Below the pieces are notes generated by a model. It saw nothing but the letters and a program-made list of their open reading frames with translations, ran no database searches and was not told the origin of the DNA. Below, one piece after another: positions 1 to 61,713 of a stretch of DNA of 64,000 nucleotides. Every line of letters begins with the position of its first letter. Positions within the stretch are counted from its first letter, which is position 1. Location of the stretch: IMG/VR virus record IMGVR_UViG_3300045988_179622; one strand, given 5' to 3'. Both the position numbers and the translations under genes were made by a program. The DNA comes from a virus.

Positions 1-901
1 CTCTCCATAGGCGTAAATTCCTGACTAACGAATCAGTACATACCTATCTATCTATCTATTTATCTTTATCAACTTAAACTGAAAGTATTATTTTTCTACT
101 TATTTTTTATAGCTTTTTATAAGATTTTTTCAACTGTTTTATTCCCCTTACTTTAATTTTCTGCTTGCTCCAGTTATCTTTATAAAAGGCTTTTCTATTA
201 AAATCGAAGGAAGATATATTTCCATATTTTGATTCCTTAATACAATTATTTTCTCTTAATTCTTGAATTGCGTTTTCTATTTCTACTCTTGAATTTGAAT
301 TGGTTTTTTCATTTTTGACCTCTCCTAACTTTCCTTACGAATTAAATTCAATTTACTTTACCTTACTGGATAACCAAAACTTTTAAACTATTAAACATTA
401 TTATTACTATTACTATTACTATTATCATCACTATAGAAAAGAGAAGAATAACAGTTAAACTATTAGAAAAATGCTTTTCTTCGGTTTCTTTTTCTATCCC
501 TTAAGTAATAAATGTCCCCCATTTTTCCTTATTTTTATCTTTATTCTTACCTTTAAAAAACAAAAAAAGAAGAAGTCCTGTATTACCATACAACTTATCT
601 TCTCACATATACATACATAAAAATACCGTATAGTGTAATTTTGTGTTGTATAGTACAGCATAGAACTTCTTCTTATTCTCGTTACTTTCACTTTTTCAAT
701 TTTTCAATTTACTTCTTTTATTTATTTGGTGTTGACTAAGATTTCCCCTCTTAGTAGGTTCTACTATACCCTTATCATTTAAGTTATAGTTATATTTATA
801 CAGTACGGGTCATATGACATTGAACACCCACAATATCAAGCAAATAAACTATCTAATCTACTAAGTTATTTGCTCTGTATGTTTTTTACTATTCCTTTGA
901 A

Positions 902-974
902 CAGGGCTAATCGGATTCGAACCGATGTAATGCAGGAGTCAAATTCCTGTGCCTTTCCACTTGGCGATAGCCCT
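902..974 (-). tRNA. tRNA-Gln (anticodon UUG)
   Basis: Reverse complement folds as a cloverleaf: acceptor AGGGCTA/TAGCCCT, anticodon stem CAGGA/TCCTG, loop ATTTGAC, T-loop TTCGAAT, discriminator G. Confidence 0.8.
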
Positions 975-1109
975 TTAATTATTTTATTTTGGTGTGCTTA
1001 TTACATCCTTTTTTAGTTGTTACCTATTTATTTAAGCATTTAATTAAGCACACCCTATATGTATATGTATGTATGTATTACTAATCCAAACTAGATACCT
1101 ATAAAGAAC

Positions 1110-1310
1110 TTAAATAGTTAGATTGTATTCCTCTATAATTTCATCTAATGTTCTATATGAATACCTACTTAAATTTTGAGTTACTACATTATAAATTACA
1201 TACTTGTATCTATGTCTACCATCTCTGCGTGTTTGTGTTACAGAAATGTAACTACCACCATTGCGAGTCTTGTTCTCTAATGCTCTCTTTACTTTTTCAA
1301 ACTTTGTCAT
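1110..1310 (-). CDS. small hypothetical protein (66 aa)
   Basis: ORF on the consensus coding strand. No recognisable motif. Confidence 0.3.
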   Translation of the reverse strand: MTKFEKVKRALENKTRNGGSYISVTQTRRDGRHRYKYVIYNVVTQNLSRYSYRTLDEIIEEYNLTI

Positions 1311-1548
1311 TTATGCTTAATCACATCCTCTTTCTTTATTTTATTGTCCTTTGTTTTACACCATATATATATAACACTTGCAAAACTCTAAAGTATGTAA
1401 GAAGGAAACAATTATTTCTACTTATACATCTTTAAATCCTCTGATGAACATACATATTTATTTATCTATGAAGGTCAATATTTAACTTATTAATTCTTGT
1501 AAACTTATGAAAAATCAATATGAAGTTGTCTTTTGTTTCTTTCTTACA

Positions 1549-1572
1549 CCCCTTAAGTATCGTATGCCCCCC
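1549..1572 (-). promoter_or_regulatory. example of the recurrent 21-bp motif CTTAAGT-N5-ATGYCCCCC
   Basis: One of about 17 same-orientation intergenic copies (listed in the findings). G/C pentamers stand out in this AT-rich DNA. Confidence 0.5.
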
Positions 1573-1733
1573 TCTTTTTACTCTGCTTTCTAGCTTGTCC
1601 GACTATTTTTAAGTGCATATAAACTAACTTTACTACTAGAAATATACTATTATATATATACTCAAATATAAAGGTGGTTTTAATTCTACTATCTATCTAA
1701 TTTTTTCTGATTTCCTTCTTTATTATTTAGTTA

Positions 1734-2504
1734 TTAATCAATCAGGCTCTTTCTTAATTTCATATAGTCTTCATACCTAGCATTTAATAACTCTATAATG
1801 AACCTTTTGCGTTCTTCACTTAGTTCTTTTGGAAGTTCCCTTACAAACTGGGCTATTTCTTTTCTATAATCTACTATGACAGGTAATTTATCTGCCAATA
1901 AACTTAATTGTCTATCCCAATCTATACTAAATGGCTTACACTTCAGTATTTTTGTTATTTTCTCTGTATATCGTGTAGGGACTGTTTTAGTGCTTAACAA
2001 AGCTGCTCCAAAGTCAAACAATGGGGCTAGTTCTAATTCCATTGTATTAGTGTTCTGAAATAATGCTAAATTTCCTAAATGCCTATCAGTATCTAGTGTT
2101 AGATATACTAACATTAAGGCTTCTTCTAAATACTTTTCTTTCTTTATACTACATAGCCAACTATAAATTTCTTTTGAATTTAACTCTGTTACCGAAAAAT
2201 AACCCTGTAATCCTAATTGCACAAAATCCACTAACTCATAATTATATTTATTAAAATCTGTACTCTCACACCCTATATATTTCTTTTGATTGTCCACATT
2301 CACAATACATAATTTATACTCACACACATTAAATCCAAGTAAACTACCTAATTTAGAAACAATTACTTCTGAATAGCTTTCATATCCATTTATTGATGTT
2401 GATAGCTTTATATATTTGTTTCCTAGCCTCCACTTTGGTACAGCTCCTGCTATTGACGGTGTATCTTTTAACATTTCTGCACTACTTACTATGTATTCAT
2501 TCAT
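1734..2504 (-). CDS. HipA-like Ser/Thr kinase (C-terminal HipA domain)
   Basis: DTDRHLGNLAL catalytic loop (the DRHxxN of HipA_C) and LAPLFDFGAAL (the aPaYDl motif). Confidence 0.55.
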   Translation of the reverse strand: MNEYIVSSAEMLKDTPSIAGAVPKWRLGNKYIKLSTSINGYESYSEVIVSKLGSLLGFNVCEYKLCIVNVDNQKKYIGCESTDFNKYNYELVDFVQLGLQGYFSVTELNSKEIYSWLCSIKKEKYLEEALMLVYLTLDTDRHLGNLALFQNTNTMELELAPLFDFGAALLSTKTVPTRYTEKITKILKCKPFSIDWDRQLSLLADKLPVIVDYRKEIAQFVRELPKELSEERKRFIIELLNARYEDYMKLRKSLID

Positions 2505-2662
2505 ATTTTTTGATTACCTTTCTAAGGATTATTACAAGCGTATTACTTAAATTTTCTACAAGCTAAAATTTGTTACTTTTCGGCTTCTCACTTAATCTCT
2601 CCAATGTTTATTTATTTATTTATTTATTGTATAACAAAACCAAAGGCTGTTAAACCCACCCC

Positions 2663-3004: not shown

Positions 3005-3599
3005 CTTAATTTCTTCCTTTCCTATCGCTATTGAAAAACCTATAGACTGATTTTATTTTATTTTATTTTATTTTATTTGTACTCCTTACTACACACTTTT
3101 TATACCTTATATGTCCTTTAACTTAGAAAGCATAAAAATTAAAGAGGCTTAGCTATTTCTTTACCAAACCCCTTCCACCTTATAAACATAAATTTACGAT
3201 ATAAACTAACTATCTAACCTCTACTTACTTCTTCTTTTTTCATAATGCTCAGTACCTCCTTATTATATTACATTTCATTCCCACTCATTTTTGGTTTTCT
3301 TCTCTTTTCCAGTATTTTTGTATACATTTATTGCTTTAATCTATTGATTTTCGCTCTATTTTAACACTTTTTTATTCCTGTAGTATTGTTTATAGTCTCA
3401 TTATCTTTTCTTTAAATTTGACCTAAATTAGAACGATTTATCGGGTTGTTACTCTATTCTTTTATCTTCACACACTATACACTCATAATTTTTTCTAATT
3501 GGTTGTCCCAACAATTTTCTTTCTTTATTTATTTATTACTCGAATCTTCTAAGTTTCTAAACTTTTAAACTTCCAATCACTTTTTACTTTAGTTTTTTT

Positions 3600-4283: not shown

Positions 4284-4485
4284 CTAATTAACTTAAGTCT
4301 TGAATACAGGTACTTATTCTTTTTAGTTGCAAACTTATGTTTATACTTATTATATTTTGTATGTCCTTTAACTTAGAAAGCATAAAAATTAAAGAGGCTT
4401 AGCTATTTATTTACCAAACCCCTTCCACCTTATAAACATAAATTTATGATATAAACTATCTAACCTCTGCTTACTTCTTCTTTTT

Positions 4486-4782: not shown

Positions 4783-5140
4783 AATGTTTACTTACCTCCT
4801 TCCTGTAATTAATTTAAGTCTTGACTACGGTTACTTATTTTTTTCAGTTGCAAACTTATGTTTATACTTATTATATTTTATATGCCCTTTAACTTTTCTA
4901 CTTACTGTAACTTAAATTAAACCAAAAACATATACACACAGATAAACCAGCTAATAAATAAATAAATAAGGGACAATGTAGTGCATATAAGTGTATTCTC
5001 ATTTAGTTAGTTAATTAATTAACTTTACACACACATAAACACTTTATCATTGTCCCTGTTCATATTCCTTTGAAACTCTATGTATTACTTTACTTTATAT
5101 TTTTTTAACTTTTCTTTTTTATCCTAATCTATCTTATGTT

Positions 5141-5602
5141 TTATTCTTTCCTTACAGCTAGTATTGAACTTTTTGCCAGCTCATCGCTTCGCTCATTTTC
5201 TTCATTCCCTGAGTGCCCTTTAATCCAAATAAACTTTACCTTGTGTAACTCTAATAAAGGTAACAATCTCTCCCACATATCTATATTTAATGCAGGTTTC
5301 TTATTCTTCTTTATCCAATTATTTGATTTCCATTCATTTAGCCAACCTTTATTGACTGTATCTACCACATATTTCGAGTCACTATATATCTGTACTCTAC
5401 TAGGCTTACTCAAAGACGCTAATGATACTATTACAGCTTCTAATTCCATTCTATTGTTTGTCGTTGTCCCTTTAAAAGAACCCCTAATTTCATCTCTAGT
5501 ACCATTATTATTGCTTCCTTTGTAGATAATTACTGCACCATATCCACCAGTCTTATCTACCCTAGAATAAGAGCCATCTGTATAAATATCCACTTTTCTC
5601 AT
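5141..5602 (-). CDS. rnhA: ribonuclease HI
   Basis: IYTDGS, ELEAVI, YSDSKYVV and WIKGHSG..N.RSDELAK motifs of RNase H1. Confidence 0.8.
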   Translation of the reverse strand: MRKVDIYTDGSYSRVDKTGGYGAVIIYKGSNNNGTRDEIRGSFKGTTTNNRMELEAVIVSLASLSKPSRVQIYSDSKYVVDTVNKGWLNEWKSNNWIKKNKKPALNIDMWERLLPLLELHKVKFIWIKGHSGNEENERSDELAKSSILAVRKE

Positions 5603-6108
5603 TTAACCTTTTAAACTGTTTACTTATTTATACTACTTTATGCTACCTTTTTTTCTTTCATATAAAAAGTAAGAAAGAACCTACTTGACAATTTACTTTG
5701 TAGTATCTCTCAATACAACTTAACTGAGAAAAAAATATTATAAAACTTTATACATTATCTATATCAAATAAAAAAGGAGGTGATAAAATCCATTGTCTTT
5801 CGTATTCTTTCTTACGCCCCTTAAGTATCGTATGCCCCCCCCTCTTTTACTACTGTATAAACACAAAAACGAGTGCTAAACAGTTACATTATACTAGAAA
5901 GAATTATTTTTTTAAAAAAAAGAGAGTACCCACTAATTACCTGTGAGCCTCTCTTACTTACTTAGCTTGTTCTTTCTTAACTTATTATTATTTCATCAGC
6001 AATATTTCTAATACTGTTACTATGTAACTTATAAAGATACTTAACTTAATAGAAAGTATTTTCTACTCTATCATACTTTTCTGTATAGATAAGCGTTATC
6101 TACTATAT

Positions 6109-8059: not shown

Positions 8060-8560
8060 TTATTGCTTAGCTTAGCCTTGTTCTGACTAAGCTAACTTAT
8101 TTTTACTTTATATGTATAAATTTGAAAACTTTGATTTTTAACTAGTCTATATTGATAATTTCAGTCACTATACCTCACTGACATTAACCTAATAAACAAA
8201 GCTAAACAAAATTCTTAACTTTTTAAGTCATCCATTAAGTGTTGAATGTCCCCCTACCTTATAAACGCATAAACTCATCTAAATACCAGAAATTATATCC
8301 CTTTTTAAAGAAAGCTCTACCGTCTTTGTTGTACTGTATCTTACTCCAAGTCTTCCTACTACTCTTAGCTTCTCCTAATGTTACATATGCTGATAACACC
8401 CTCTCATCTTCAATCTTATATATTACGATTGCTGTTGTATTTGTTAGTCCACAAGATGCTATTGGTTTTAACATATTTTTTCATCACTCCTTTTTATATT
8501 TATAGTAATTAAGTCGGTTAAGTTAATTAGTTAATTCGTCTGTCATATTTTTAATTTAAT

Positions 8561-9877: not shown

Positions 9878-9881
9878 TTGT

Positions 9882-10073: not shown

Positions 10074-10387
10074 TCCTTCTACCTACTTTCTTTTCAAACC
10101 ATATCCATAACATAACTTAACTTAACTTATATTAAATTAAAATTAACTTAAATTAGCTTAGACTAAATCAAATAAACTACCTAGCTACCTACACTTGCAG
10201 TTTAACTTTTTATCTCTACTACTTAAGTTGTAAATGCCCCCTGCAACACTTCTACCAAATAAATTTATAAATAAAAAAAGAGACTACCTAATACTCTTTG
10301 TGTAGTCTCTAACCTTCAATATTATCTTTTATGTGCTAACTTAATAAATGAATTTATATCCACCTAACCTTATTACTACCAACGACA

Positions 10388-21226: not shown

Positions 21227-21731
21227 TATACATAACTTCCTTTCTTCTATATAAAAACTATTAACTGTATACTAATTTTGTGTGTATTCTAACTCCAGTT
21301 CAATCTTTTGTCAAGTATTTTTAGTAATAAAATAACTATTTAATTTTAATCAAGCATATATTTTATAAGTATTAAATTTATTACTATAACCTATATATAA
21401 ACATACTTTTAAATTTACATATTATTATTTATCTCCATTTCCAATTAAATACCAACATATAAACTTAGCTTTAAACTATTTTCTGATATTTCATTATATT
21501 TCTACCCATTTTTGAATGTTTTATTTTCTATGTAGAATTATACCATTTTCTATATTTCATTGAAATTTGAGCCAAAAAACACATAAAATACACAAAATTA
21601 AAAAGAGCCTACTAAAGACTCTTTCATCTAAAAATTTTTATTTTAATTGTCAACTAACTAACTAACTAACTAACTAAATAAATAAATAAACTCCACCACA
21701 TTTGCTGTATAGTTTATATTTTTCTACTAAT

Positions 21732-22948: not shown

Positions 22949-23137
22949 CCTAACCTCACCAACCTTTCCTTACAAATAAACAGCTAACTTATAATATACT
23001 TCCTACCTACCTTATTTATTTATCTGTTTATTTATTTGTTTGTTTATTTATTATTTCCTTTTTCTTTTTGGCTCTAATCCAATTTTTTTCGCTTGTCATT
23101 TTATCATATTCCTAATTCAGTTTCAACTTTTATTTGT

Positions 23138-25047: not shown

Positions 25048-25494
25048 TTAATTGAAATGTTGTTTTGACAACTTAAACTTCTTTAAATCGTGCTTGTACA
25101 GGTAGCTTATTGCTTTTTCTACACTATCGAAACTTCTTTGAAAATGATAACTTCCTCTATGTCTTCGAAAAACAAATAAATTCCCGTGATATAAATTAAT
25201 CTTATCTCCACTACTTGCTTCCTCTATTATCCAACAACTCAGCTGTGATTTTATATAATAATCTCCGAACTTGTACTCATATTCCAACCCTAACCTTTCA
25301 CATAAGGTAGGTACTGTAGACTTTAATAACATTTCCTTTAAACAGTTACATCTAAAGTGTTTATCCTTTATATCTATCTGTCTTCTCTGTATATTTCGTA
25401 TCTCACATTTATGTGTATCGACAGTTCCATTATGTAAGAAAACACAGTCCTTAGAGTGATACTTTTTCGTTACTGTATTGTATACTAGCTCCAT
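25048..25494 (-). CDS. Cys/His-rich hypothetical protein
   Basis: 148-aa ORF with several Cys and His. Confidence 0.35.
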   Translation of the reverse strand: MELVYNTVTKKYHSKDCVFLHNGTVDTHKCEIRNIQRRQIDIKDKHFRCNCLKEMLLKSTVPTLCERLGLEYEYKFGDYYIKSQLSCWIIEEASSGDKINLYHGNLFVFRRHRGSYHFQRSFDSVEKAISYLYKHDLKKFKLSKQHFN

Positions 25495-25798
25495 ATAAAC
25501 GCCTCCCTTCTAACAGCTTAAAGTATTCAAAATTAAACTAACAGCCAAAACTATCTGTATATTGTCACTTTCTCCTGTTTCATTACTTAAGTAAAAAATG
25601 TCCCCCTACCGTTTTAGCAGGGAGACTTATATTTGATAGGAGAAAAACTAAATCTAGCTACATACACCTACTACTACTACTACTACTACTACTACACACA
25701 CATAAATATATACATTTTCTCGTGTACTGTTTTTTTGTTACAATGTTCTTTCTGTGTACTAGGTGAATAAATAAATAAATAAATAAATAACCTAAAAA

Positions 25799-27169: not shown

Positions 27170-29560
27170 TTATAAGTATTCAGCCATATAAACATCTAAA
27201 TCATATGGTGTTATATCACCATCCACATCAAAGATAATATCAGCTTCCTCTTTATCATCTACCATTAATCCTCTTGCTCTTGTGTTTAAAGCAATTAAAT
27301 CGTATAAAGTAGGCTTTTGCATATTTACAACACTATAACATACGGCTGCTACAGTATCTAAATTACTTTCTACATTATTTCCACCAACTCTAGTATAACA
27401 ACTACCTAAGGATACACCCATATCGCCCCAAATTATTTCTCTGTTTACACAGTCAAAAATAACTGGAATACTGATACAACCATTTGTGGTTAAATCCATT
27501 TTCTGTTCAACTGTTTTTGGCTCATAAATTTCTCCTGACTTTACACTTTTTCTATTCATCCAGCCGAAACTAGCGTGTGGTAGTTCAGATAAAATCTGCT
27601 GTGTATAGCTGTACACCTGATAAACAACATATCTTCCTCCATACTTTACTACAGAGTCAATATCAATATCAATGAACTCACTTACACCTTTTCCATTTAC
27701 ATTTCCACCGTCTGTAATATCGCCTGAGTGACAAGCTCTATATTTCTTAGAGCGTAAGTTTGTGTATGAAATATGTTCCATATAATTCCAGTTTTCATCA
27801 AAGATAGCACCTGATAAGTCTAAGTCTACTCTACTCTTTTTATCATTTGTCCACCAAATAAACCCTCTTAATACTTTTGTGCTTGCTGGAATAGGTACTC
27901 TTGAACCTCTTACCATAGTCTTTAAAGTTTTGTTGGCACTTCTCTGGCTGAAAGGTACAATATAATTCTTAAACTCTTTTGACACATAAACATTACCTAA
28001 CCAGTCTCTCTTGCTATAATTTGTTACTAAAGCGTTTTCACAAATTCTTACTATAGACTTACAAGCCTTTTCTGAGATAGCTTCTAGCTTATTTTCTACA
28101 TTATAGCTATTTGCTAGTCTGCCCTTAGGGAAGAAAACCCTATACTTAGTGTCTTTAACTTCATTTGAAGCCTTATCTTCCTTTTCGTTATTGTTACCAG
28201 GATTGCTATCACTAGTTTCAACTTCAACTTCAACCTCAGCTGATTGATTTCTGTGTTTGAAATGCTCCCTTACCTGTAATAAAACAGGTGTAGCTACTTC
28301 TACTGCTACTTCTCTGAAAGCATTGACAATTTCAAATTCATTTTCCTTATAAAGTCTTAATAAATAATCTAATTTTCTTGCTAGTTCACCTGGACGCTTC
28401 TTTAATAAATTGATTGCTGCGAGTTCCTTTGTTGCAAGTAACTGCTCTACCTTAGATGCGTAAGTTTTTATCTCTTTAGGACAATTTCTTAACTTTCTAT
28501 AAGCTTCATTTACTGTAGGATATGAATTTTTATATTCAGCAGGGTGTAACTTTTCTCCTACTCTAATCCACTTACCCTTGTGGCGTAACATATCTTCTTC
28601 AATACCTTTACCACAACTTTCAAGCAACTCCATAATTAATCTGCGTTCCTTACGGTTGAAGTTTCTATACTTAGTTGTCCCAGCTAAACTTACATCACCA
28701 CCTGACATCTCTGTAATAAGTCTAAGGACATCTGTTGCTGTCTTAATGTATCTTTTTAATAGAAAATTAAGTTCTCGTTCTGATAAATAATTACATTCTG
28801 TTATTAAGATTTTACATATCAAAGCTACATTTTCTTTTAATAAAATTTCTTTAGGTAGCATACAGAATACATCTGCGTTTGTTAGTAACCACTCTAAGTC
28901 TTTCTTATCTGTAGACGATAGAGAAGTTTTTGAATTACATAAATTTAAACCTATCTCTAATAAATCAAAATAATTTCCTACTTCAATTACCTTTAATTTA
29001 TTTGTTACTTCTTCTTCTAAAGGCAATCTCTCTTTCTTTTCTGATTCTGGATAATATGTGCCTAATGAGAGGTAATGTAAGATTGCATTAAGATATAATT
29101 CTACTTCTTCTGCTTCCATTACTTCTTCTGGAAAGTTTGGATAAAGAGGCTTGTAAACTACATTTGCACCTACAAGTTTCTTTAATACAGACACTACTTC
29201 TAAATACATTTTCTTTAGTTCGTCTACATTCTTTTTCTTTAAAATTTCAATAGCTTCTTCTGAAAATGTATAACCTAAACTCCCAATATTCTTTAATAGA
29301 GTTGCTACATAAACTTCTTCTTTAGTAACAGCACTTTCAGGTGTTTTTGCTTCTATTACTGCCTTTATTTCTGCTACTCCATCCTTTTCTTCTGCTTCTG
29401 CTTTCAAACCACTTTCATTCTCTAACCCTAACAAAAGTTTATTTCGTCTTCTTAACAAGATTTCAAGAGCCTTTGGCTCTGCTAAACTTCCTGGTTTAAA
29501 TATTGTCTTTCTTTGGTTGTTTGTTGCCTTTTCTTTCATAGTATCTGCATTAATTCCCAT
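27170..29560 (-). CDS. large protein (796 aa) with a C-terminal TerD-like domain
   Basis: VDLDLSGAIFDENWNYMEHISYTNL and SGDITDGGNVNGKGVSEFIDIDID resemble TerD VDLDASAFLLD and GDNxTGEGDGDDE. Confidence 0.4.
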   Translation of the reverse strand: MGINADTMKEKATNNQRKTIFKPGSLAEPKALEILLRRRNKLLLGLENESGLKAEAEEKDGVAEIKAVIEAKTPESAVTKEEVYVATLLKNIGSLGYTFSEEAIEILKKKNVDELKKMYLEVVSVLKKLVGANVVYKPLYPNFPEEVMEAEEVELYLNAILHYLSLGTYYPESEKKERLPLEEEVTNKLKVIEVGNYFDLLEIGLNLCNSKTSLSSTDKKDLEWLLTNADVFCMLPKEILLKENVALICKILITECNYLSERELNFLLKRYIKTATDVLRLITEMSGGDVSLAGTTKYRNFNRKERRLIMELLESCGKGIEEDMLRHKGKWIRVGEKLHPAEYKNSYPTVNEAYRKLRNCPKEIKTYASKVEQLLATKELAAINLLKKRPGELARKLDYLLRLYKENEFEIVNAFREVAVEVATPVLLQVREHFKHRNQSAEVEVEVETSDSNPGNNNEKEDKASNEVKDTKYRVFFPKGRLANSYNVENKLEAISEKACKSIVRICENALVTNYSKRDWLGNVYVSKEFKNYIVPFSQRSANKTLKTMVRGSRVPIPASTKVLRGFIWWTNDKKSRVDLDLSGAIFDENWNYMEHISYTNLRSKKYRACHSGDITDGGNVNGKGVSEFIDIDIDSVVKYGGRYVVYQVYSYTQQILSELPHASFGWMNRKSVKSGEIYEPKTVEQKMDLTTNGCISIPVIFDCVNREIIWGDMGVSLGSCYTRVGGNNVESNLDTVAAVCYSVVNMQKPTLYDLIALNTRARGLMVDDKEEADIIFDVDGDITPYDLDVYMAEYL

Positions 29561-30348: not shown

Positions 30349-30419
30349 AGCACTAGATGGGAGTCGAACCCACCACTTCAGATTGGAAGTCTGATGTTTT
30401 ACCGATAAACTACTAGTGC
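30349..30419 (-). tRNA. tRNA-Gly (anticodon UCC)
   Basis: Acceptor GCACTAG/CTAGTGC, anticodon stem TCAGA/TCTGA, loop CTTCCAA, T-arm GTGGG-TTCGACT-CCCAT, discriminator U. Confidence 0.75.
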
Positions 30420-30462
30420 AGTTTATTTTACATTTTTCTAAAGGTATAGGTTTATACCTGTA

Positions 30463-30498
30463 GGTTTACACCTGTGTCATTTCGCATCCTTCTAAAAC
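30463..30498 (-). CRISPR. single CRISPR-like repeat (plus a partial copy at 30448-30462) next to leader-like element copy 1
   Basis: ggtttacacctgtgtcatttcgcatccttctaaaac. This is the same family as the 36-bp array repeat. Confidence 0.4.
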
Positions 30499-30499
30499 C

Positions 30500-30703
30500 T
30501 CAAAAGTTCTTTAGATTATATGCTTAACTTATATTTACAAGTGCTTTATGACTTTTTAGTTTCAAAGGACAAAACCCTTGCCCTCTACTTGCTTCGCTCT
30601 CTTACCTTAGATTAAACTAAGTAATAAGTAATAAGAAGTTCCACCAAACACTTTTCCTTTTCTTTTAACTTTTTATACACCCCTTAAGTATCGTATGTCC
30701 CCT
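30500..30703 (-). other. conserved leader-like element copy 1 (about 200 bp), ending in the promoter-like motif
   Basis: Near-identical copies lie at 31192-31414 and 31739-31929. All contain acaagtgctttatgac...caaaggacaaaacccttgccctctac...ccccttaagtatcgtatgYcccc. Confidence 0.6.
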
Positions 30704-30893
30704 CTAATAACTAATTCTATCTATATAAACCACTAAATTAATTATTTAATTGGGGCTTTATTTATTTGTTTACTCAACTTGTCGGTTTTTCCGACAGGTT
30801 CAAATGTATATTTTGTATATTTAGGTTTTACACCTATGTTATGTTTGCTTCCTCATAATCACTTTGGTTATAAGATTATTGAAATTCCCTCAA

Positions 30894-43628: not shown

Positions 43629-43640
43629 TGGCTTTTTCTG

Positions 43641-46289: not shown

Positions 46290-46626
46290 ACCCTCACTTA
46301 AATTTATTTTATATTGACTCTATCTCTATCTCTATCTCTCTCTACTAAACTACTTAATAATATACTTAAACCTCTACAATACATACATAAATAAATACCA
46401 ATAAACATACTAAAATAAATTCATTAAATATATATTGTCTGTATTCTTAGTTCTTTTCTCTACCCTATAAGCATTAAATGTCCCCCTCTTTTACATATTT
46501 TCAACTAAAAAAGACAGGAATTTATATCCTGTCTTAAAAAATTTTTCTGATTTAGTTTTGCTTACTTCAATTCAACTTAGCTTAACTTAACTTAACTCAA
46601 CTCAACTCAACTTAATTTAATTTAGT

Positions 46627-52734: not shown

Positions 52735-52998
52735 TTAGCTATTCCATTCACTAGCACCACCTACTGAGAGTGTATCATCGGCTGCTGTAGACTTAGCTGC
52801 AGATGTAGCACCTGCTGCACCATCACCATTAAGGTCAATAGATGTACCTGTACCTGCCTTAATACCAGCTTCAACTTTACCTACAATCTGACCGATAAAG
52901 TTAGGGAATAAAACATTAACACCGAAAGCTACTAAGAGGATACAGATAATTGCTGTACCAAGAATCTTAAAAATATTCTTTACCATTTGGGTTTTCAC
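52735..52998 (-). CDS. small pilin-like protein with an N-terminal hydrophobic helix
   Basis: 87 aa. The hydrophobic segment IFKILGTAIICILLVAFGV is followed by a G/A/T-rich region. The promoter-like motif lies 36 bp upstream. There is no canonical Flp G/XXXXEY motif. Confidence 0.4.
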   Translation of the reverse strand: MKTQMVKNIFKILGTAIICILLVAFGVNVLFPNFIGQIVGKVEAGIKAGTGTSIDLNGDGAAGATSAAKSTAADDTLSVGGASEWNS

Positions 52999-53175
52999 CT
53001 CCTTTGAATTTTTATTTCACTATAATGAAACCTAATGCCCCCTAACAAAGGAAGTGCGAAACTCAATATTCAGTTGTACGATATATTGTATAATAAAAAA
53101 TCTACCCCTCTTTATTCGTCAAGGGATAGATTTACATTTAGTATCTTTATTTTATTTACTTTTTATGTATTTTAG

Positions 53176-54255
53176 CTACATAATTCCACTCATACCACCT
53201 ACTAAATCTGGAATATATATAGCCATAGAAGAAACTACTGCTTGAAAAAGTAAAACCATAATTATTGCTCTTAGTACCATATTTACTTTTTCTATGATTT
53301 TATCCCCTCTATCCTCTAACTCTGCCTTTCGTGCTGCAACTAATTCTTTTCTAAAACCTATAAGCTCTTGCTTTACATTAGCACCGTCATATATCTGCTT
53401 TATTAATCTCATTAATGTACCAACTTCTGCTATTTCTCGGTAGTCCCTAGCTATAGGCTCTGTTGCATTATATTCACCTAATGTGTCTATATGGTTTGTC
53501 CATATTTCAACCATTTCGTGCATTTCTGGTGAATCTGTTGTCTTCCTATAAGAAGCTAGAAGTGTTGGTATAGGAGTTTCTCCTCCCATATATAAAGAAT
53601 AGTGCAATACCAAATAAACATCCATAAAATTAGCTCTAATTTCTGCATCCTTAGAGGTTACTATTCCTCTTATAATTATCATTGGCATTGTTAGTATCAA
53701 CCAAATTGACACTACTGCCATTATTATTCCTACTGATGCAGATACAAAAACTGCTATAAATATTGATATTGCTAACAAAACACCCAAAGTAAACACCTTT
53801 AAAGCATTATATTCCTCTAAGTGTAACGAATTTCCGTTTGGCAATTTAAACCCTGTTCTTTTTAAGTTATAGTCCATATAGTCTTTTAACTGTTTATTAC
53901 TTCTAAAGATTGACTTTTCAGTCCACTCTGTAATACTGTTTATAAAAGACATACTTCGCATTACCATTTCATCTTTTCTTCTTATTCTAGCCCTAATTGA
54001 CATAGCATACTTAACACCATTTCTGCTTAGTGTTGTTATGTTATATTGCTTTGCTATCATTATAACTAGAATTGCTATTAAAAGAACGGCTATACCAAGC
54101 ACAATAAACGGAATAGCATTACTCATATCCACCATACGCCAATTCACAGCATTTGTTCTCTGACTTACCTCGACACTTTGATGTAAAATTTCTCCTCCTG
54201 CTCGCTCTCTAGCTACTGTTTTAGCTAATAAATTAATCATCTCTTGTTTCCTCAC
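53176..54255 (-). CDS. TadC-like (GspF-family) pilus assembly membrane protein
   Basis: Polytopic membrane protein immediately after the TadB-like gene. Confidence 0.5.
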   Translation of the reverse strand: MRKQEMINLLAKTVARERAGGEILHQSVEVSQRTNAVNWRMVDMSNAIPFIVLGIAVLLIAILVIMIAKQYNITTLSRNGVKYAMSIRARIRRKDEMVMRSMSFINSITEWTEKSIFRSNKQLKDYMDYNLKRTGFKLPNGNSLHLEEYNALKVFTLGVLLAISIFIAVFVSASVGIIMAVVSIWLILTMPMIIIRGIVTSKDAEIRANFMDVYLVLHYSLYMGGETPIPTLLASYRKTTDSPEMHEMVEIWTNHIDTLGEYNATEPIARDYREIAEVGTLMRLIKQIYDGANVKQELIGFRKELVAARKAELEDRGDKIIEKVNMVLRAIIMVLLFQAVVSSMAIYIPDLVGGMSGIM

Positions 54256-54313
54256 CGTCCTATTTTTATGTTTTTTCTTTTTTCTTCTTTATTTATATTT
54301 ATTCATTCTTTCT

Positions 54314-55324
54314 TTACAAAGCTATAGCCCTTGCTCTAGTTACATTTACGAACTGGAATATAATCAATAAAGCATCTATTAACAAGATAATCTGTCCTGC
54401 TGGATTATGTAGATAAAATTCCCTTAAAAACGGAAAAATAATTAATCCTGCTAACAAGAATATCCCAATACCACCAGCAGCTAAAGCAAATTCCTGCATT
54501 GCTTTTTCAAATTTTCTTTTCATTGTATTTCTGATACCTGTTTTTATAGTATTAATTTCTACTATATCTTGAAATGTTCCCAATAACCCTTTTACTTCTT
54601 CTGTTTCAAATACAATACATTTCTTAATAAACTCATCTGCAACTGAACCTAATACTGTATTTAATTCTTGTAATGCTGTTTTAATGTGATAGTTTTTATA
54701 CTCTACATTGTCAATAAAATCTCTAAATTCAGCTCTTACTTCCAAAGGCATAAGGTCTATAGAGTTCTTTACTGCTACCAATGTACCGTCCTTAATATTA
54801 TTACAGATTATATTTTCGCTTTCTATTATCGCTTCTATTCTAATATCGTGTGATACATTAGCCTTTGTATATAAACCACAACCTATCCCTATTAATGCAA
54901 TAGGAAACACAAAAATAGTTAAATAAACTGCATTAAATACTAAAGTTGAAACTGCATATGATACAGCTAAAGCACTAAACAACAATATCCACATAAACTC
55001 ATATGGTGTGCAACCTTTTGCTTTTAACCCTAAATCAATTATCATATCATTCAAAAACCTATACAGCTTTACCTTTTTTTCTTTTTCGTGTATCCTTCCT
55101 ATTAGTATATCTCTCTGTAACCTAGTTTCTTGTCGATTAATTAATACCCCTAAATATTTAAACCCACCTAAACTAAGTGCTACAGTTATCTTTCCTAAGT
55201 TTACATCTAATACCTTAACTATTGCAATTAAGCATATAAAAGCAAACATTATTGATATAATTACTGTTAAACCACTAAAACTAATTCCTTTAGCTAATAG
55301 TGCAAACAAACCATTCTGTAACAT
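54314..55324 (-). CDS. TadB-like (GspF-family) pilus assembly membrane protein
   Basis: Polytopic membrane protein downstream of the CpaF ATPase. Confidence 0.5.
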   Translation of the reverse strand: MLQNGLFALLAKGISFSGLTVIISIMFAFICLIAIVKVLDVNLGKITVALSLGGFKYLGVLINRQETRLQRDILIGRIHEKEKKVKLYRFLNDMIIDLGLKAKGCTPYEFMWILLFSALAVSYAVSTLVFNAVYLTIFVFPIALIGIGCGLYTKANVSHDIRIEAIIESENIICNNIKDGTLVAVKNSIDLMPLEVRAEFRDFIDNVEYKNYHIKTALQELNTVLGSVADEFIKKCIVFETEEVKGLLGTFQDIVEINTIKTGIRNTMKRKFEKAMQEFALAAGGIGIFLLAGLIIFPFLREFYLHNPAGQIILLIDALLIIFQFVNVTRARAIAL

Positions 55325-55354
55325 TATTCATTCACCTACCCCTAGTTTCTCACT

Positions 55355-56869
55355 TTACTTACCATAATTTATACCATATCCTCGTATATTTTCTCCTGTA
55401 TATGTTTCAGGAAGTTCATCTTCGGTAGGTGGTTCAGATATAAAATCAAATTGTGACTTTGTAACACCTTCTAATGCCATTCTTTCTTGCAATTCTTGTG
55501 TTAAGCAACCTACTCTCTTGTGGTAGCCTTTTATATCTTTTACAAAGCCATTCTCGTCAAACTCTGTTCCAGTTACAATAAACTTGTATAAGTCGTTTAT
55601 ATCAGCTGCATTTGGGTTATCATCCTTTACACCCACAACTTCACTTATCTGTATAATCTTTCTTGTACCATCCCTCATTATCTTCTGTACGATTACTAAG
55701 TTACACAGACTTGTTATATTATATAAAGCTAGGTCTGAGGGTTCATTCCCACTCTCAGCTAAGTATGCTGTCAAAAATCGTTTTATTGCACCTTCACTAC
55801 TTCCTGCGTGGAAGGTACAGTTAATTGGGTGTCCTGCCTGCATTATCTGCATCCCTAACTTAAATTCTATATTAGTACGCAATTCACCAAAACATACAAA
55901 TGTAGGCGATAATCTTAAAATATGTGTCATAATATTCTGCATTGTTGGGTCTTTAGGTGTTGGGTTTTCTACTTCCTTCGCCTCCAAATGAAGTACATCG
56001 TTATACACACGACCTGTAGCTGTCTTAAATCTAAGGTCGATTTCAGATGGGTTCTGTGCTAATACAGTTCTTGTATCTGCTGGCATTTCCTGTAATATTG
56101 CATTATTCATTGTTGTCTTACCTGATGATGTAGGTCCAACTGTCATCCAAGTTAATCCACCTCTTGGGCATAAGGACAATAATCGTGCCATATTATCGCT
56201 TAATGTACCAAACTTAACAATATCTCCTAAACCCATCTTGTCCTTTTTAAACTTTCTAAGTACAAAGGAATTATATCTAGGTGCATTAGGCTCTTGTGGG
56301 TCTGGTGACATAGCTGTAAAATGTACGGCTGCAATTCTATAACCCTCTACTGTTCGTGCATTAACCAAAGCATCTTTCGGAGTTAGTTTTACATCACCCA
56401 ACAGCTTACGCATTATGATTTCTTGCTGTTCAGGAGAGTCAAAAGAAACAATATTCCCCTCTGTGTCAGTTAAATCTTTAACCCTACCTTTTATTTCAAC
56501 TTTTATCTCTTTACCATTTGCTCGAATTTCATATACATCTGGATTTTCCATAGCTTTTGAGAGAATACCATAGTCTGTAATATCCTCTACTAATTTATCT
56601 ATTACTTTACCTACTTCCATTCTATTCCCAGAAGTATAGTTTTCTATGCTTACGCTTTGATTTTGATTTACATAATCTGTAATTAGCTTTTTAATAGCAT
56701 CTTTTTTGGCTTCTACTTCTAAATAACGATAATCATTACTATTATTCTTTATAAACTCTCTACATCTAGTAGTGTAAGCTTCCATTGTCATACTCTGTGT
56801 TGCTTCTTGCATTGACTTAGAATCTGCACCTCTAGCTACCTGTAGTCCTATCAACCTTTCTTGGTTCAT
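55355..56869 (-). CDS. CpaF/TadA-type secretion ATPase (VirB11/GspE family)
   Basis: Walker A GPTSSGKTT, CFGELR Asp/Walker B box and His box. AGGAGG ribosome-binding site. Confidence 0.8.
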   Translation of the reverse strand: MNQERLIGLQVARGADSKSMQEATQSMTMEAYTTRCREFIKNNSNDYRYLEVEAKKDAIKKLITDYVNQNQSVSIENYTSGNRMEVGKVIDKLVEDITDYGILSKAMENPDVYEIRANGKEIKVEIKGRVKDLTDTEGNIVSFDSPEQQEIIMRKLLGDVKLTPKDALVNARTVEGYRIAAVHFTAMSPDPQEPNAPRYNSFVLRKFKKDKMGLGDIVKFGTLSDNMARLLSLCPRGGLTWMTVGPTSSGKTTMNNAILQEMPADTRTVLAQNPSEIDLRFKTATGRVYNDVLHLEAKEVENPTPKDPTMQNIMTHILRLSPTFVCFGELRTNIEFKLGMQIMQAGHPINCTFHAGSSEGAIKRFLTAYLAESGNEPSDLALYNITSLCNLVIVQKIMRDGTRKIIQISEVVGVKDDNPNAADINDLYKFIVTGTEFDENGFVKDIKGYHKRVGCLTQELQERMALEGVTKSQFDFISEPPTEDELPETYTGENIRGYGINYGK

Positions 56870-56924
56870 TTATCTTATTTTCCTCCTCTCTTTTCGCTTT
56901 TAATTAATATTCTAATTACTTTAT

Positions 56925-57983
56925 CTATTTATCTTTAGTTTCTAATTCTTCCAATTTATCTACATCAACCTTTTTCTTCTTTTCCTTTTTAACGGATTTT
57001 TCCTTACCTAAATCTTTAACAATTCTTTCATATCCACCTAATCTCAATATTTCATCTAAAATGTTACCTAAATTAGTACAATAAGTTTTAGACTGAGGTG
57101 TGAAATTTGTACCTTTCTCTAAGTAAATCTCACTATTTAAACCACTTTCGATTATTTTCGTATCAAAAGGCAATACACCTAATAAAGGTAATTCTAGTGT
57201 GTTAAATATCCTTTTCGGATAAAATACATCTGTTTTTTTATTTAATATAACTTTAAATCTCTTTGGCGTTACGCCTTGGGCTGCTAAACTTCTACTTAAT
57301 GTATCAAAGTTAGCCACACAGTTAATCCCTTCGTCCCAAACTGTATAATAAGCATCTGAGTGATATAGTGCTGTACCTACAATATCAAAGGATAAATCCA
57401 AAGGACAGTCTAGCATAATAACATCAAATTGATATTTTATCTTTCGAAATGCTCTCTCTAAATTCTCAGACGCATTTTTAGAGTCTAAGTCCAAATAGTT
57501 ATATAACACTCTATCGTGTGATGCTAGTATAGACAGATTTCCTTTATTCACAATACTTTCACCTATTTCATTCTTTCCTTGTAAAAACGAAACTAAGTCT
57601 GGTTGGTTTTCTGTATATCTAATATCAAACAAATAAGGTATTGTCGGAAACATAATATTTAAGTCTATGAGTAGAACTGTTAAACCTTGCTTAGATGCTA
57701 AATAAGCTAGATTAGAGACTACTGTACTTGTCCCTACTCCTCCAGCACTTCCAATAAAACCTAAGATGTTATCTACTAACTTTAACTTTGTATCTGTGCC
57801 TTTTCCTGATAACACTTCCAAAGAAGTTTTTAATAAATCATCGGCTCTTTGGCTAAATGTCTTATTACTATTTTCGCTATCTTTATTGTTGTTATTGTTA
57901 TTATTACCACTAAATAAACGCATTTCTTTTTTCCTCCTTCTCTCTTTCTTTCTGTTATTTACTGCCAATACTACTACTGCCAA
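56925..57983 (-). CDS. CpaE/TadZ-like MinD/ParA-family ATPase
   Basis: GFIGSAGGVGTSTVVSNLA deviant Walker A. AGGAGG ribosome-binding site. Confidence 0.65.
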   Translation of the reverse strand: MAVVVLAVNNRKKERRRKKEMRLFSGNNNNNNNKDSENSNKTFSQRADDLLKTSLEVLSGKGTDTKLKLVDNILGFIGSAGGVGTSTVVSNLAYLASKQGLTVLLIDLNIMFPTIPYLFDIRYTENQPDLVSFLQGKNEIGESIVNKGNLSILASHDRVLYNYLDLDSKNASENLERAFRKIKYQFDVIMLDCPLDLSFDIVGTALYHSDAYYTVWDEGINCVANFDTLSRSLAAQGVTPKRFKVILNKKTDVFYPKRIFNTLELPLLGVLPFDTKIIESGLNSEIYLEKGTNFTPQSKTYCTNLGNILDEILRLGGYERIVKDLGKEKSVKKEKKKKVDVDKLEELETKDK

Positions 57984-58049
57984 TACTACTACTACTACTG
58001 TTGGTATTGTTTTGGTATTTGTTTACCGTTTATTTTATTTTGTTTTGTT

Positions 58050-58919
58050 TTATTCTGCTGAACGCTGTGGTAATGCACATTCAAATGTAGCTTGTTTATT
58101 CTTATAGTAATAATACCTTTCGAGTTCCTCTGGTGATAACGCTACTAACAATGTAGATGGTGTTGTCTGTGCCTTCCACGCAGTATCATTATCTAAAGCT
58201 GATTGTTGTGCTGCTGGTAAACTATTATAATATGTATATAAATCCAACACAGAGTCTCCTGAACCATTTAACATATCAGCTATCATAATGTCATTGAAAG
58301 CTAATTCTGACTTAACTGTCTGTAAACTTTTATCTGTAGATACTTTGTTACCATACCCATCATCTACACTACTGCTAGACTGAATACTATATGTTGCATA
58401 AATATTTACTGTGTCCCCAGGAGATAGATAACTCTTGTATGTACTTAATATATCGTTTGCAATATCGAAACTTACTACTTCTTTCCCTGGGTAAGCATAT
58501 AAAACTGTATTTTTATTACTACTCTTTGCACTAATAAACTCTCTATACTGTGCGTAATCTCCTTGCATTAACGGATATGCTGCGAACTTACCTACTACAT
58601 CTGGCACTTCTGAATATAACATTATTCTTTTCTTTGTTGTTCCGTCTTTCTGGTCTACAACTGCTAAGTTCTCATATTCTGTCTTTAGCATATCGTATCT
58701 AACGAACATATCCTCTGTTATTGCTTGGTTTTTATATACATTTCTATTGAGTACAGCTACTGTAACCTTTTGCTGTGTTAAAAATGCCATCCAAGACACC
58801 CATATAATTAAAGCTCCTGTTACGACAATTAAACCTGCTATTGTCATATTTTTTCGCATTGTATTCGCACCTGGACTTGTTATACCTGCAAGCCTATTTC
58901 GTTCTCTCTTTATCTTCAA
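58050..58919 (-). CDS. CpaB/RcpC-like pilus assembly protein
   Basis: Single N-terminal TM then a beta-rich SAF-like region. First gene of the cluster. Confidence 0.45.
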   Translation of the reverse strand: MKIKRERNRLAGITSPGANTMRKNMTIAGLIVVTGALIIWVSWMAFLTQQKVTVAVLNRNVYKNQAITEDMFVRYDMLKTEYENLAVVDQKDGTTKKRIMLYSEVPDVVGKFAAYPLMQGDYAQYREFISAKSSNKNTVLYAYPGKEVVSFDIANDILSTYKSYLSPGDTVNIYATYSIQSSSSVDDGYGNKVSTDKSLQTVKSELAFNDIMIADMLNGSGDSVLDLYTYYNSLPAAQQSALDNDTAWKAQTTPSTLLVALSPEELERYYYYKNKQATFECALPQRSAE

Positions 58920-59216
58920 CTTTTTATTCCCCCTTCAATAAATTAATATTTGCTATAACTAACAAACTAGCTAGATAAACTGATTTATTATTAATAATCA
59001 TAATTTATTATAAGACATATTTTTCTTCTTCTTCTTCTTTTACCTAGCTAGTTGGCTTTCTATCCCTATTTCTTTTCTATAAACCTAAATCTAAATCTAA
59101 ATATTTTGGCATTTATTTCCTTTTGTTCTTTTATGTATTTATCAATATCTTTATTGCTAATATTGACTTACTTACTTACTTAATCTTCTTTCTTTTTCTC
59201 TGTTTCTATCCATCTG

Positions 59217-60764
59217 TTAGTACAATTCCTTTGCATACACTACTAAACCTGAGATACTCCACTCTGGATATAGCAATATATATTCACTCTTTAATTCTAT
59301 GAAACCCAAACAGCCTATTCCATATATATCATATCTATATATTGTCTTATTTGTAATTGTCTTTTCTTCCTTAAATGGAAATTGTTTGTTTTTAAGCACT
59401 ATCTGTACTTGTTCAGCTGAGCATAATTTAGCGTTCATTAATGCGAGTTCATATATACTATGTGTTCTAATAAACACATCTAAGTCCTCCACATTTATAT
59501 GAAATTGTCCCTTTTCTATACCATCTCCTAGTGTAACAAGCCATTTTGTTGATATATTCTGTTCTTCTTCATAAACTACTTCAGCTATTTCTTCTAACTT
59601 ATTTGCTGGTAATTTATAACCAAATGCACCTTGATGTCCACCTACATAATAGCCTTGTGTTGGGTACTTTTCCTCTATGTATTTATTTATCGCATCATAG
59701 TAATTTACAGGGTATCTCCCTCTAAAACTACCTAAAGCACAACCATCGACTACAGAATAAACAAATGCACTCTTATCATATTTATCCTTTACCTTACTCG
59801 CTATTATTCCGTTATATGCCCCAGACACACCTTTGCCTGTCATATCTATAAATGTAGAAGTTTTGTATTCATTAGTCTTTTCAGCCTTTAATACTGCTTC
59901 TTCTTGTAACTTTTTATACTTCTCTTGCATTAGTTTATTTATATTTTCGGGTTCATTAACTGTCAAGTTTAATGCTATTGCACTATCCCCAGCCCTTATT
60001 GCTCTGTTTATTAAAGGAGCAAATGAATAATTTACATTAGACTTACTTAATGTTTCTCCATAAGCGTGTATAGTTTCTAATATAGCCTTTAAATTCTTTT
60101 CTAAATCTATTGCACATATTGACCTATCCAAGTAAAACTGATTTCTCTTTGTATCTAATGTAATTACATCTGTAAATAATGTAACTACTGCCCATTGATA
60201 CAGTTTATCTTCATATATCCACTCTGCTTCTCCTCTATATGCTAGATACGCCCTCAAAAACTCATAAACTACCAACCCACAACTCATTGTCTCTTTGTAA
60301 TTTTCTACGCTATTTATTATTGTAAAGTTTTCTTTTCTAAGTTCTCCTGTTGGGTTATGATGGTCTATTACTAATACAGGACAATTAAATTTACTTAATA
60401 TATCTTGCTTTCCTGAACTACTGTCTAAGACAATTAACAAATCTAGTTTCATTCCATTTACAGTCTCTACATATTTTTCTGTAATTCCGTGCTTCTTGTC
60501 CTTATTAATCATTAATATAGGCTTTATTCCATAATGCTTTAGGAACTTATTCATTATGTAGCCACTACCTATACCATCTACATCTACATCACTATGTATT
60601 GCTACTTGACTTAACCTACCTTTTCTAAGAACCATATCCAATAAATCAAATGCTATATCTTCATACCTAAAATTACATATGCAAGGTCTTTCTTGTGTCA
60701 TTCCTACAAGGCAATCATATTCTTTGTATATTCCCCTTAAAAACTTTTCAAATTCTTTTTCCAT
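59217..60764 (-). CDS. DHH-family phosphoesterase (RecJ/NrnA-like)
   Basis: DVDGIGSG, VIDHHNP (DHH) and GGHQGAFG (GGGH of DHHA1). Confidence 0.65.
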   Translation of the reverse strand: MEKEFEKFLRGIYKEYDCLVGMTQERPCICNFRYEDIAFDLLDMVLRKGRLSQVAIHSDVDVDGIGSGYIMNKFLKHYGIKPILMINKDKKHGITEKYVETVNGMKLDLLIVLDSSSGKQDILSKFNCPVLVIDHHNPTGELRKENFTIINSVENYKETMSCGLVVYEFLRAYLAYRGEAEWIYEDKLYQWAVVTLFTDVITLDTKRNQFYLDRSICAIDLEKNLKAILETIHAYGETLSKSNVNYSFAPLINRAIRAGDSAIALNLTVNEPENINKLMQEKYKKLQEEAVLKAEKTNEYKTSTFIDMTGKGVSGAYNGIIASKVKDKYDKSAFVYSVVDGCALGSFRGRYPVNYYDAINKYIEEKYPTQGYYVGGHQGAFGYKLPANKLEEIAEVVYEEEQNISTKWLVTLGDGIEKGQFHINVEDLDVFIRTHSIYELALMNAKLCSAEQVQIVLKNKQFPFKEEKTITNKTIYRYDIYGIGCLGFIELKSEYILLYPEWSISGLVVYAKELY

Positions 60765-60870
60765 TACTTACCTTTTCACACACTCTCTTTCTTTTTTCTT
60801 CTTTTGTTTTATTCTTTAGTCTAACAATTATATTAGTTATGCTTTATATATCTAATACTTTATATGCCCC

Positions 60871-61713
60871 CTACAACAAATGACTTTCTCTTAAATTATT
60901 GAGGTTAAATACTACATAATTATTACTTTTGCCCTCTACACCTTTTAATTCTAATAAACCATAGGTATTTTCTTCTTCATCTAAAGTTGTTCGGCACTCT
61001 TTATAATCTGTTATGTACAAATCTTCATTTAGTAAACTCTTATACTTATTAATTACTATCTTCTCTATATCATCATCATCATTATTATTATTTTCTTCTT
61101 GTGGTTGTTGCTGTTGCTGTTGCTGTTGCTGTTGTTGTTGAGGTAACTTACCTGTATATCTATCTTTGTTTCCTCGATATGTATATAGGTCATTTACATA
61201 TATCTCATTTGTCTTTGTATCTATAATACACAATACATTTATAATACCTTTACTTGTTTTGTACTGTCCTAAATATCCGTTATCCATATAGTAAGCATTT
61301 ATCAATACTGGCTTTTCATCTAAAATTACTTTTCCTGTACTCTTACTATTAACTGTAGTATCTCTATTATTCTTTCCTCTTAAAGCATACACTTGTCCTT
61401 GTTTTTCTGCATATTTCTCAGCATATACAGGTAAGGCTGCTAAACTATATCTCCTATCAGCCATAATATTTTTTTCTTTCCCTTGTATATTTCCTTGTTC
61501 TTTTTCTTTTACTACTTCTCTTTCTGTTGTTGCTTCTTCTTCTTCTTCTTTTGTTGTTGTTATTGTTGTTACATCTACTACTACTTCTTCTTCTACTGCA
61601 TTTACAGGTTTTGCATTGATATAACATCCTCCACATATACTAATAAACAACAATGTCAGCATACTAATTCCAAACTTTATCTTATTGGCTCTTATTCCTT
61701 TATGTAACTTCAA
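60871..61713 (-). CDS. secreted protein with a poly-Gln tract
   Basis: Signal-peptide-like N-terminus. Q13 is coded by (CAA/CAG)n at 61105-61145. Confidence 0.4.
   Translation of the reverse strand: MKLHKGIRANKIKFGISMLTLLFISICGGCYINAKPVNAVEEEVVVDVTTITTTKEEEEEATTEREVVKEKEQGNIQGKEKNIMADRRYSLAALPVYAEKYAEKQGQVYALRGKNNRDTTVNSKSTGKVILDEKPVLINAYYMDNGYLGQYKTSKGIINVLCIIDTKTNEIYVNDLYTYRGNKDRYTGKLPQQQQQQQQQQQQPQEENNNNDDDDIEKIVINKYKSLLNEDLYITDYKECRTTLDEEENTYGLLELKGVEGKSNNYVVFNLNNLRESHLL

Follow-up and report, generated by a model that had tools for sequence, protein, structure and literature searches.

A 28-bp sequence that recurs in a single orientation between the genes of IMG/VR virus record IMGVR_UViG_3300045988_179622 is probably a promoter, read by a bacterial RNA polymerase whose specificity factor is not the housekeeping sigma (estimated probability about 0.65). 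The 64,000-nucleotide stretch analysed here (the window) is part of a very large, phage-like element of the human gut that measures at least 375 kb. From the copy statistics, the position and orientation of the motif, the asymmetric placement of terminators, a transcription unit common to element and host, and a diverged motif in a relative, we infer promoter activity, a start site and the kind of polymerase and factor involved. A preliminary description, made from the letters of the window only, had proposed an element-specific promoter. The promoter part of this proposal is the best supported of the available explanations. The element-specific part is not supported, because the same 28–30 bp also head chromosomal genes of Eubacterium sp. 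CAG:274.

The pattern CTTAAGT-N5-ATGYCCCCC, with up to three mismatches, matches the window 13 times, always on the plus strand, where shuffled sequences predict 0.69 matches. For the shorter core ATGYCCCC there are 17 plus-strand matches and no minus-strand match (expected 1.03; none of 100 shuffles reached 17), and a 28-bp weight matrix gives 15 matches on the transcribed strand, none on the opposite strand, and zero or one in shuffles. Coding sequence makes up about 77% of the window, yet all 17 core sites lie between open reading frames (ORFs) or RNA genes of the minus strand. The about 17 same-strand intergenic copies reported in the preliminary description are therefore real, and neither occurrence inside genes nor occurrence on both strands speaks against them. 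Fourteen of the sites had been placed correctly, and three were off by about 10 bp (20197–20217 should read 20187–20207; 39705–39715, 39717–39725; and 60872–60881, 60864–60872). An eighteenth, weaker copy, aaGGGACATT..GAGATATAGTGTAG, had been missed (Table 1). The distances to start codons that had been cited as examples are 36, 63 and 72 nt when recomputed. Four of the 17 sites (18368, 39717, 53035 and 60864) contain only the GGGGGRCAT half, joined to an A/T-rich second half.

A metagenome scan for GGGGGRCAT-N5-ACTTAAGGG revealed many further copies elsewhere in the genome of the element, on contigs of 204, 125, 210 and 195 kb and others, and on one strand only within each contig. The 10 kb past the low-coordinate end of the window contain two more copies, 44 and 36 nt before genes. 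After removal of strain duplicates, 40 non-redundant sites from strains of the element and from Eubacterium sp. CAG:274 were available for the profile analyses reported below. In gene direction these sites define the 28-bp element GGGGGRCATWYRnnACTTAAGGRnTRnA, with the profile G1 G2-5 R6 C7 A8 T9 W10 Y11 R12 n n A15 C16 T17 T18 A19 A20 G21 G/T22 R23 n T25 R26 n A/C28. Conservation is limited to positions 1–28 and does not extend into the flanks (30 nt on the 5' side, 23 nt on the 3' side). Thirteen half-sites retain T18, T25, G26 and A28 and usually have TTATAT or TATAGT in place of CTTAAGG. The motif is asymmetric except for the 6-bp CTTAAG. RNAalifold finds no consensus secondary structure in the aligned sites, and the folding energy of the single sequences is no lower than that of shuffles (mean z-score +0.18). 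We rejected a miniature mobile repeat (MITE- or REP-like), since nothing is conserved outside the 28 bp and inverted repeats are absent. A full-text search of the literature for the motif strings returned unrelated papers only.

Strains of the element are 93–100% identical around the sites, which is too close to inform on conservation. The nearest relative, a contig (L142) with 41% G+C that is syntenic at 52% amino-acid identity, contains a diverged form of the motif, aaGGGCAWT-N5-yTTATAT-AG, at five intergenic sites 54–80 nt before start codons and with unchanged internal spacing. Relatives at about 36% identity show classic TTGACA-17-TATAAT promoters, with a GGGCAT-type site occurring singly if at all. 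The diverged motif in relatives implies that this motif class predates the present lineage, which expanded and sharpened it. Relatives found by way of a 796-aa protein (L016–L035) share only that gene with the window, so that the lack of the motif there is uninformative.

Table 1. Copies of the 28-bp motif in the window
Copy	Position	Strand	Context
Full, GGGGGACATTTATTACTTAAGGGATAGA	493–520	-	Matrix score 37.2; terminator-like hairpin 49 nt upstream
Full, CATACGATA subfamily	1545–1572	-	Upstream of 66-aa ORF and tRNA-Gln
Full	5813–5840	-	217 nt upstream of RNase H gene (5141–5602); terminator 82 nt upstream
Full; ACTTAAT here, ACTTAAG in other strains	8227–8254	-	174 nt upstream of tRNA-Arg
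Full, A at position 1	10215–10242	-	Matrix match; terminator 38 nt upstream
Full	13275–13302	-	138 nt upstream of ORF 12691–13143
Full	14624–14651	-	72 nt upstream of ORF 14244–14558
Weak, GGG only, aaGGGACATT..GAGATATAGTGTAG	15334–15361	-	
Half-site GGGGGGCAT plus A/T-rich half	18349–18376	-	63 nt upstream of ORF 17411–18292; terminator 38 nt upstream
Full	20180–20207	-	119 nt upstream of RAGATH-18 RNA (19993–20067); terminator 118 nt upstream
Full	25579–25606	-	91 nt upstream of ORF 25048–25494
Full	30676–30703	-	Heads leader of repeat unit, then tRNA-Gly
Full	31387–31414	-	Heads leader of six-repeat CRISPR-like array
Full	31902–31929	-	Heads leader of two-repeat array, then tRNA-Gly
Half-site GGGGGACATATAAAAGGTTAATAGTGTA	39698–39725	-	Core pattern and matrix match
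CTTATAG replacing CTTAAGG	46459–46486	-	Upstream of 882-aa coiled-coil gene; terminator 27 nt upstream
Half-site overlapped by TTGTTA-18-TATAGT	53016–53043	-	36 nt upstream of pilin-like gene; terminator 58 nt upstream
Half-site overlapping stop codon of ORF 60871–61713	60845–60872	-	87 nt upstream of DHH exonuclease gene

Placement relative to genes, terminators and sigma-type promoters

None of the 40 sites lies inside an ORF. The distance between the 21-bp core and the next start codon is never less than 32 nt, with a median of about 180 nt. Since copies of the motif precede not only protein genes but also tRNA-Arg, tRNA-Gln, the RAGATH-18 RNA and all three repeat arrays, a function in transcription rather than translation seems indicated. 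A search for hairpins followed by a T-run gave 20 matches at 18 sites within 300 nt upstream, often 18–80 nt from the motif, and only two weak ones within 300 nt downstream. The order is therefore gene, terminator, motif, next gene. Copies at 8246 and 60864 abut or overlap the stop codon of the upstream gene, which shows that the motif is not part of a terminator. An intrinsic (Rho-independent) terminator is also at odds with the lack of predicted structure and with the actual terminators upstream. The terminator, attenuator and packaging functions listed as alternatives in the preliminary description thus find no support: the motif forms no hairpin, terminators precede it, and the copies are too many for packaging. 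Three copies do stand at the leaders of CRISPR-like repeat arrays, as had been noted. We rejected a CRISPR leader element because these are only 3 of the 18 copies in the window, and the rest precede protein, tRNA and small RNA genes.

The profile contains no sigma-A pair of hexamers inside or around the motif. For sigma-A −35/−10 elements in the 70 nt upstream, a score of 9 or more out of 12 is reached at 3 of the 40 sites, compared to about 5 in shuffles, and this absence of an excess argues against the motif being a leader behind a conventional promoter. A housekeeping sigma-70/sigma-A promoter (TTGACA/TATAAT, 16–18 bp apart, A at −11, T at −7) can be read only in a five-site subclass, where AGGGGGCAT is preceded by TTGTT and followed by TATAGT to give −35/17–18/−10 with the G-run in the spacer. 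The motif does not fit a sigma-54 promoter (GG at −24, GC at −12), because positions 13–14 after the GG are TT and because A stands between GG and CA in 26 of the 40 sites. Neither the spacing nor the invariant bases in the published consensus sequences of sigma-B, -D, -E, -F, -G, -H and -K promoters are present in the motif, and these classes were rejected. Housekeeping-type promoters are found on the minus strand of the window at 21286–21314 (TTGACA-17-TAGAAT) and 23098–23126 (TTGAAA-17-TAAAAT with TG), both in intergenic regions without the motif, so that two or more classes of promoter are probably in use in the element.

Host copies and a shared S-layer unit

Several loci from the metagenome scan are pieces of a bacterial chromosome with 33–34% G+C that encode S-layer-homology (SLH) proteins, a dicarboxylate symporter, RmlD, ClpB, LepA and PBP2. 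A scan of one genome per species gave single matches in many unrelated taxa, evidently by chance. Only Eubacterium sp. CAG:274 has two matches. Both correspond to chromosomal loci of the metagenome scan and both have the extended consensus, so we rejected chance as an explanation for them. This species is the probable host of the element. The SLH locus of the host adjoins the S7/EF-G/EF-Tu operon (chromosomal contigs up to 633 kb). Both SLH paralogues have the motif about 240–590 nt upstream, and a GGG-type copy precedes the small gene between them. A fourth copy precedes the gene for a 104-aa membrane protein and matches a copy from the element at 30 of 30 bases. In the 21 kb of the host locus that were read, no copy precedes EF-Tu or any other housekeeping gene. 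Where host genes lie on both strands the motif is always oriented toward the downstream gene.

The similarity between host and element at motif sites spans 23–30 bp, except in one S-layer cassette. A 178-kb contig of the element (L147), which overlaps an element locus at 99.6% identity, contains an SLH gene with 79% protein and 83–92% DNA identity to the SLH genes of the host, followed by a TnpB gene (L147:5734–9073; host L149:7513–11510). The homology extends from about 8 nt before the G-run to about 110 nt past the stop codon, beyond the terminator. These limits imply that a whole promoter-to-terminator unit moved between host and element, and that the motif forms its upstream edge. The host SLH locus is hypervariable among strains (74–100% identity), which also differ in their inserted genes.

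At this locus the motif is present in every strain examined, which favors a signal that works in the host. On the other hand, the element contains more than ten times as many copies as the host, which favors the element as the home of the motif.

Candidate readers of the motif and rival explanations

In gene direction the motif can be divided into three parts: a run of five G fused to RCAT, a loose 5-bp block, and ACTTAAG-GRnTRnA, the last of which is exchanged for an A/T-rich block resembling TTATAT or TATAGT in weaker copies. Transcription would start either within the G-rich positions 21–23 or close to position 28, a conserved A, and leaders would be at least about 25–30 nt long in both cases. 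The units opened in this way end in ordinary hairpin-plus-U terminators. Canonical intrinsic terminators, together with the occurrence of the motif at S-layer genes of the host, favor a core polymerase with a non-housekeeping factor. The most likely reader would be the bacterial multi-subunit RNA polymerase, guided by an alternative sigma factor or by a box-binding activator, and either the host or the element could supply this factor.

As a sequence the motif appears to represent a new promoter class, in that it is not known to match an established class in a comparison with published consensus sequences. Middle promoters of phage T4 combine a MotA box at −30 with a sigma-70 −10 element, and T4 late promoters are TATAAATA with gp55. 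The present motif resembles these in that a phage-type upstream box takes the place of the −35 hexamer, and in that weaker copies and the L142 contig have a TATA(A/T)AT-like block downstream. Unlike in T4, the box is only 7–11 bp from the A/T block, and full copies have AGGRnT in the place of the −10 element. Homologues of MotA, AsiA or gp55 did not turn up, although no test was aimed at these. Partial likeness also exists to the promoters read by alternative sigma factors in Bacillota (sigma-B, -D, -E, -F, -G, -H, -K and sigma-54), namely CATAnnnTA (−10 of sigma-K/E), GGCAT-N5 (−24 of sigma-54) and, in one host copy, GGGTAT (sigma-B). In contrast to these promoters, the motif lacks the paired elements and spacings, has no GC at −12 and no AC or GTTTAA at −35, and its spacers are too short.

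Several points weigh against a promoter read by bacterial polymerase. The case for promoter activity is positional throughout. The lack of a match to the established promoter classes considered makes the assignment of a polymerase indirect. Many copies lie 200–800 nt from the next ORF, a distance that calls for long leaders or unannotated RNAs. In the host there are few copies, grouped at a locus where DNA is exchanged with the element, and they may have been imported from the element. Finally, searches for a sigma factor or polymerase in the window and related loci produced no recognition factor. About 40 proteins of the window were scanned and include no sigma factor or RNA polymerase, the catalytic motifs DFDGD and HDSFG are absent from about 1 Mb of redundant related loci, and a phmmer search with regions 2–4 of E. 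coli RpoD against all ORFs of these loci returned nothing. The sigma factor or polymerase that the preliminary description had considered as an encoded product of the element was therefore not found in these sequences. Such a factor may be encoded elsewhere in this genome of at least 375 kb.

The main rival, which we consider unlikely, is a dedicated RNA polymerase of the element, either T7-like and single-subunit or multi-subunit as in jumbo phages, with the host copies having been imported. Promoters of single-subunit polymerases span −17 to +6, and those of the T7 group (T7, T3, SP6, K11) measure 23 bp. The motif shares with them a contiguous block of 20–30 bp (here about 28 bp) in which an A/T-rich segment immediately precedes a G-rich stretch and conservation continues beyond it. 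The many copies in one orientation before gene clusters and the diverged consensus in a relative, here inherited at a different G+C content (41%), are further similarities. The absence of sigma-70-type geometry and the location of host copies within a cassette common to the element also fit this explanation. On the other hand, the sequence is unrelated to T7-group promoters save for a chance ATACGA in one subfamily, the carrier is not a 40-kb podovirus, and the motif also occurs in the host chromosome. Non-canonical polymerases of jumbo phages use short, A/T-rich promoters, such as the TATG-type of phiKZ and AACA-N6-TW of AR9. The huge phage-like genome and a non-sigma-70 intergenic motif are reminiscent of these systems, but the motif is neither short nor A/T-rich, and split beta/beta-prime genes were not found in the loci searched. 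Further points against a dedicated polymerase are that none was found in the window proteins and related loci searched, that units end in canonical intrinsic terminators, and that the motif is present at the S-layer locus of the host in every strain examined.

It seems improbable that the motif is not a core promoter but the operator of a repressor or activator over weak housekeeping-sigma promoters. The AGGGGGCAT subclass with TTGTT and with TATAGT at positions 20–25 (for example 53048–53019, TTGTTA-18-TATAGT) could be read in this way, and the window encodes several helix-turn-helix proteins. In contrast, sites of the main class lack, at any fixed offset, both a TTG-type −35 element and a −10 box with A(−11)/T(−7), and the asymmetry of the motif outside CTTAAG also speaks against an operator. 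An RNA-level function is very unlikely. The motif would then be a conserved 5' leader, a processing site or a stability element, and its transcripts would begin further upstream. In favor of this, the motif lies in untranslated regions in the sense orientation, and long S-layer leaders stabilize mRNA. Yet no promoter-like signal or conservation was found upstream, terminators often intervene within 18–80 nt, no structure is predicted, and the unit shared by host and element begins at the motif. A DNA-level site (strand-specific nick, recombination or cassette exchange, packaging signal, or terminator) is hardly credible, because the restriction of the motif to one strand, the end of the host homology block near motif copies on both sides and the site-specific nicks at a roughly 20-bp consensus known from T5 and phiKMV-like phages are outweighed by an exclusively intergenic location, placed like a promoter with respect to terminators and start codons, by an orientation that tracks the gene in mixed-strand host DNA, by the lack of a hairpin/U-tract, inverted repeats or flanking homology, and by a copy number far too high for packaging.

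The consequences depend on what reads the motif. A new sigma-like factor or polymerase would add a promoter class, while a host factor would define a small regulon of the host, copied many times over by the element. We think it doubtful that the element, as an extrachromosomal replicon of gut Clostridia of at least 375 kb, has a self-contained non-sigma-70 transcription system that drives S-layer cassettes exchanged with the host. If it does, the presence of the element would reprogram the choice of surface-layer protein by the host. Huge phage-like elements of the gut are known almost only from metagenomes. A 28-bp signal with more than 40 copies offers a map of their transcription units, a bait with which to find the factor that recognizes it, and separate evidence that ties the element to Eubacterium sp. 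CAG:274 as host. The complete promoter-gene-terminator S-layer unit that both have in common points to an exchange of surface-protein cassettes between element and host, which bears on the variation of phage receptors.

The element and its other features

The window has 30% G+C, a strongly negative GC skew throughout, and credible genes on the minus strand only. These encode an anaerobic ribonucleotide reductase with intein, a fragment of a family-A DNA polymerase, RNase H, FtsH, several DNA methyltransferases, a TnpB/Cas12f-like protein, a DHH exonuclease and a ParA-T2SSE-pilin module, in addition to four tRNAs and one RAGATH-18 RNA. This gene content fits a large phage-like element. Proteins identical to those of the window are encoded by contigs from the human gut, with lengths of up to 374,984 bp and 260,067 bp, and a 61-kb IMG/VR contig is 95% identical. 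No capsid or terminase gene was seen in the parts of the element that were read, so that the name phage rests on the IMG/VR label and on gene content; among GenBank phages we found no relatives. 'Hodor' megaplasmids have 44–47% G+C (PMC12934698), and at 30% G+C the element is not one of them.

The module at 52735–60764 comprises the DHH exonuclease, a 289-aa protein, a ParA/CpaE-like ATPase, a T2SSE ATPase, two membrane proteins and the pilin-like gene. The DHH-ParA-T2SSE combination is conserved in a large clade of 100–600-kb contigs, and the module is syntenic across gut contigs of this size (L142, L143, L145 and L146), which suggests that these elements encode a Tad-like pilus. The gene for the anaerobic ribonucleotide reductase (34294–38088, 1264 aa) apparently contains two inteins, one with a LAGLIDADG homing endonuclease and one with the HINT domain only. 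The RAGATH-18 RNA (19993–20067, gene strand; Rfam RF03064) scores 51 bits against a threshold of 44.9, and starts 119 nt downstream of a copy of the motif.

Three CRISPR-like arrays of one, six and two units occupy 30349–31929, with a 36-nt repeat (GGTTTAGAGGAATGTGAAATAACACAGGTGTAAACC in gene direction) and a 66-bp period. Each follows a conserved leader (about 170 nt), two run directly into tRNA-Gly, and none has adjacent cas genes. The 796-aa ORF beside these arrays (27170–29560) belongs to NCBIfam NF041916, the MXAN_6230/SCO0854 RING-domain family (E = 2e-125). This match, and an insignificant best E of 0.64 in a profile search against solved structures, led us to reject a polymerase or Cas effector. 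Homologues with 25–57% identity occur in the unrelated jumbo phages Xanthomonas XacN1, Rhodococcus Weasels2 and Lactobacillus LpeD.

Intergenic runs of tetranucleotides are found at 21649–21700, 34063–34106, 38965–39000, 39371–39414 and other places. They read ACTA or AATA on the plus strand, which is (TTAG)n or (TTAT)n in gene direction, and the (TTAG)n runs give stop codons in all three frames. Dispersed repeats of 90–160 nt with 87–92% identity pair 3071–3212 with 4321–4462 and 4285–4374 with 4806–4895, and occur at L147:9091–9249. One family of these repeats adjoins TnpB genes, recurs at several sites of the element, and may represent the transposon end or guide-RNA region of IS605-type elements.

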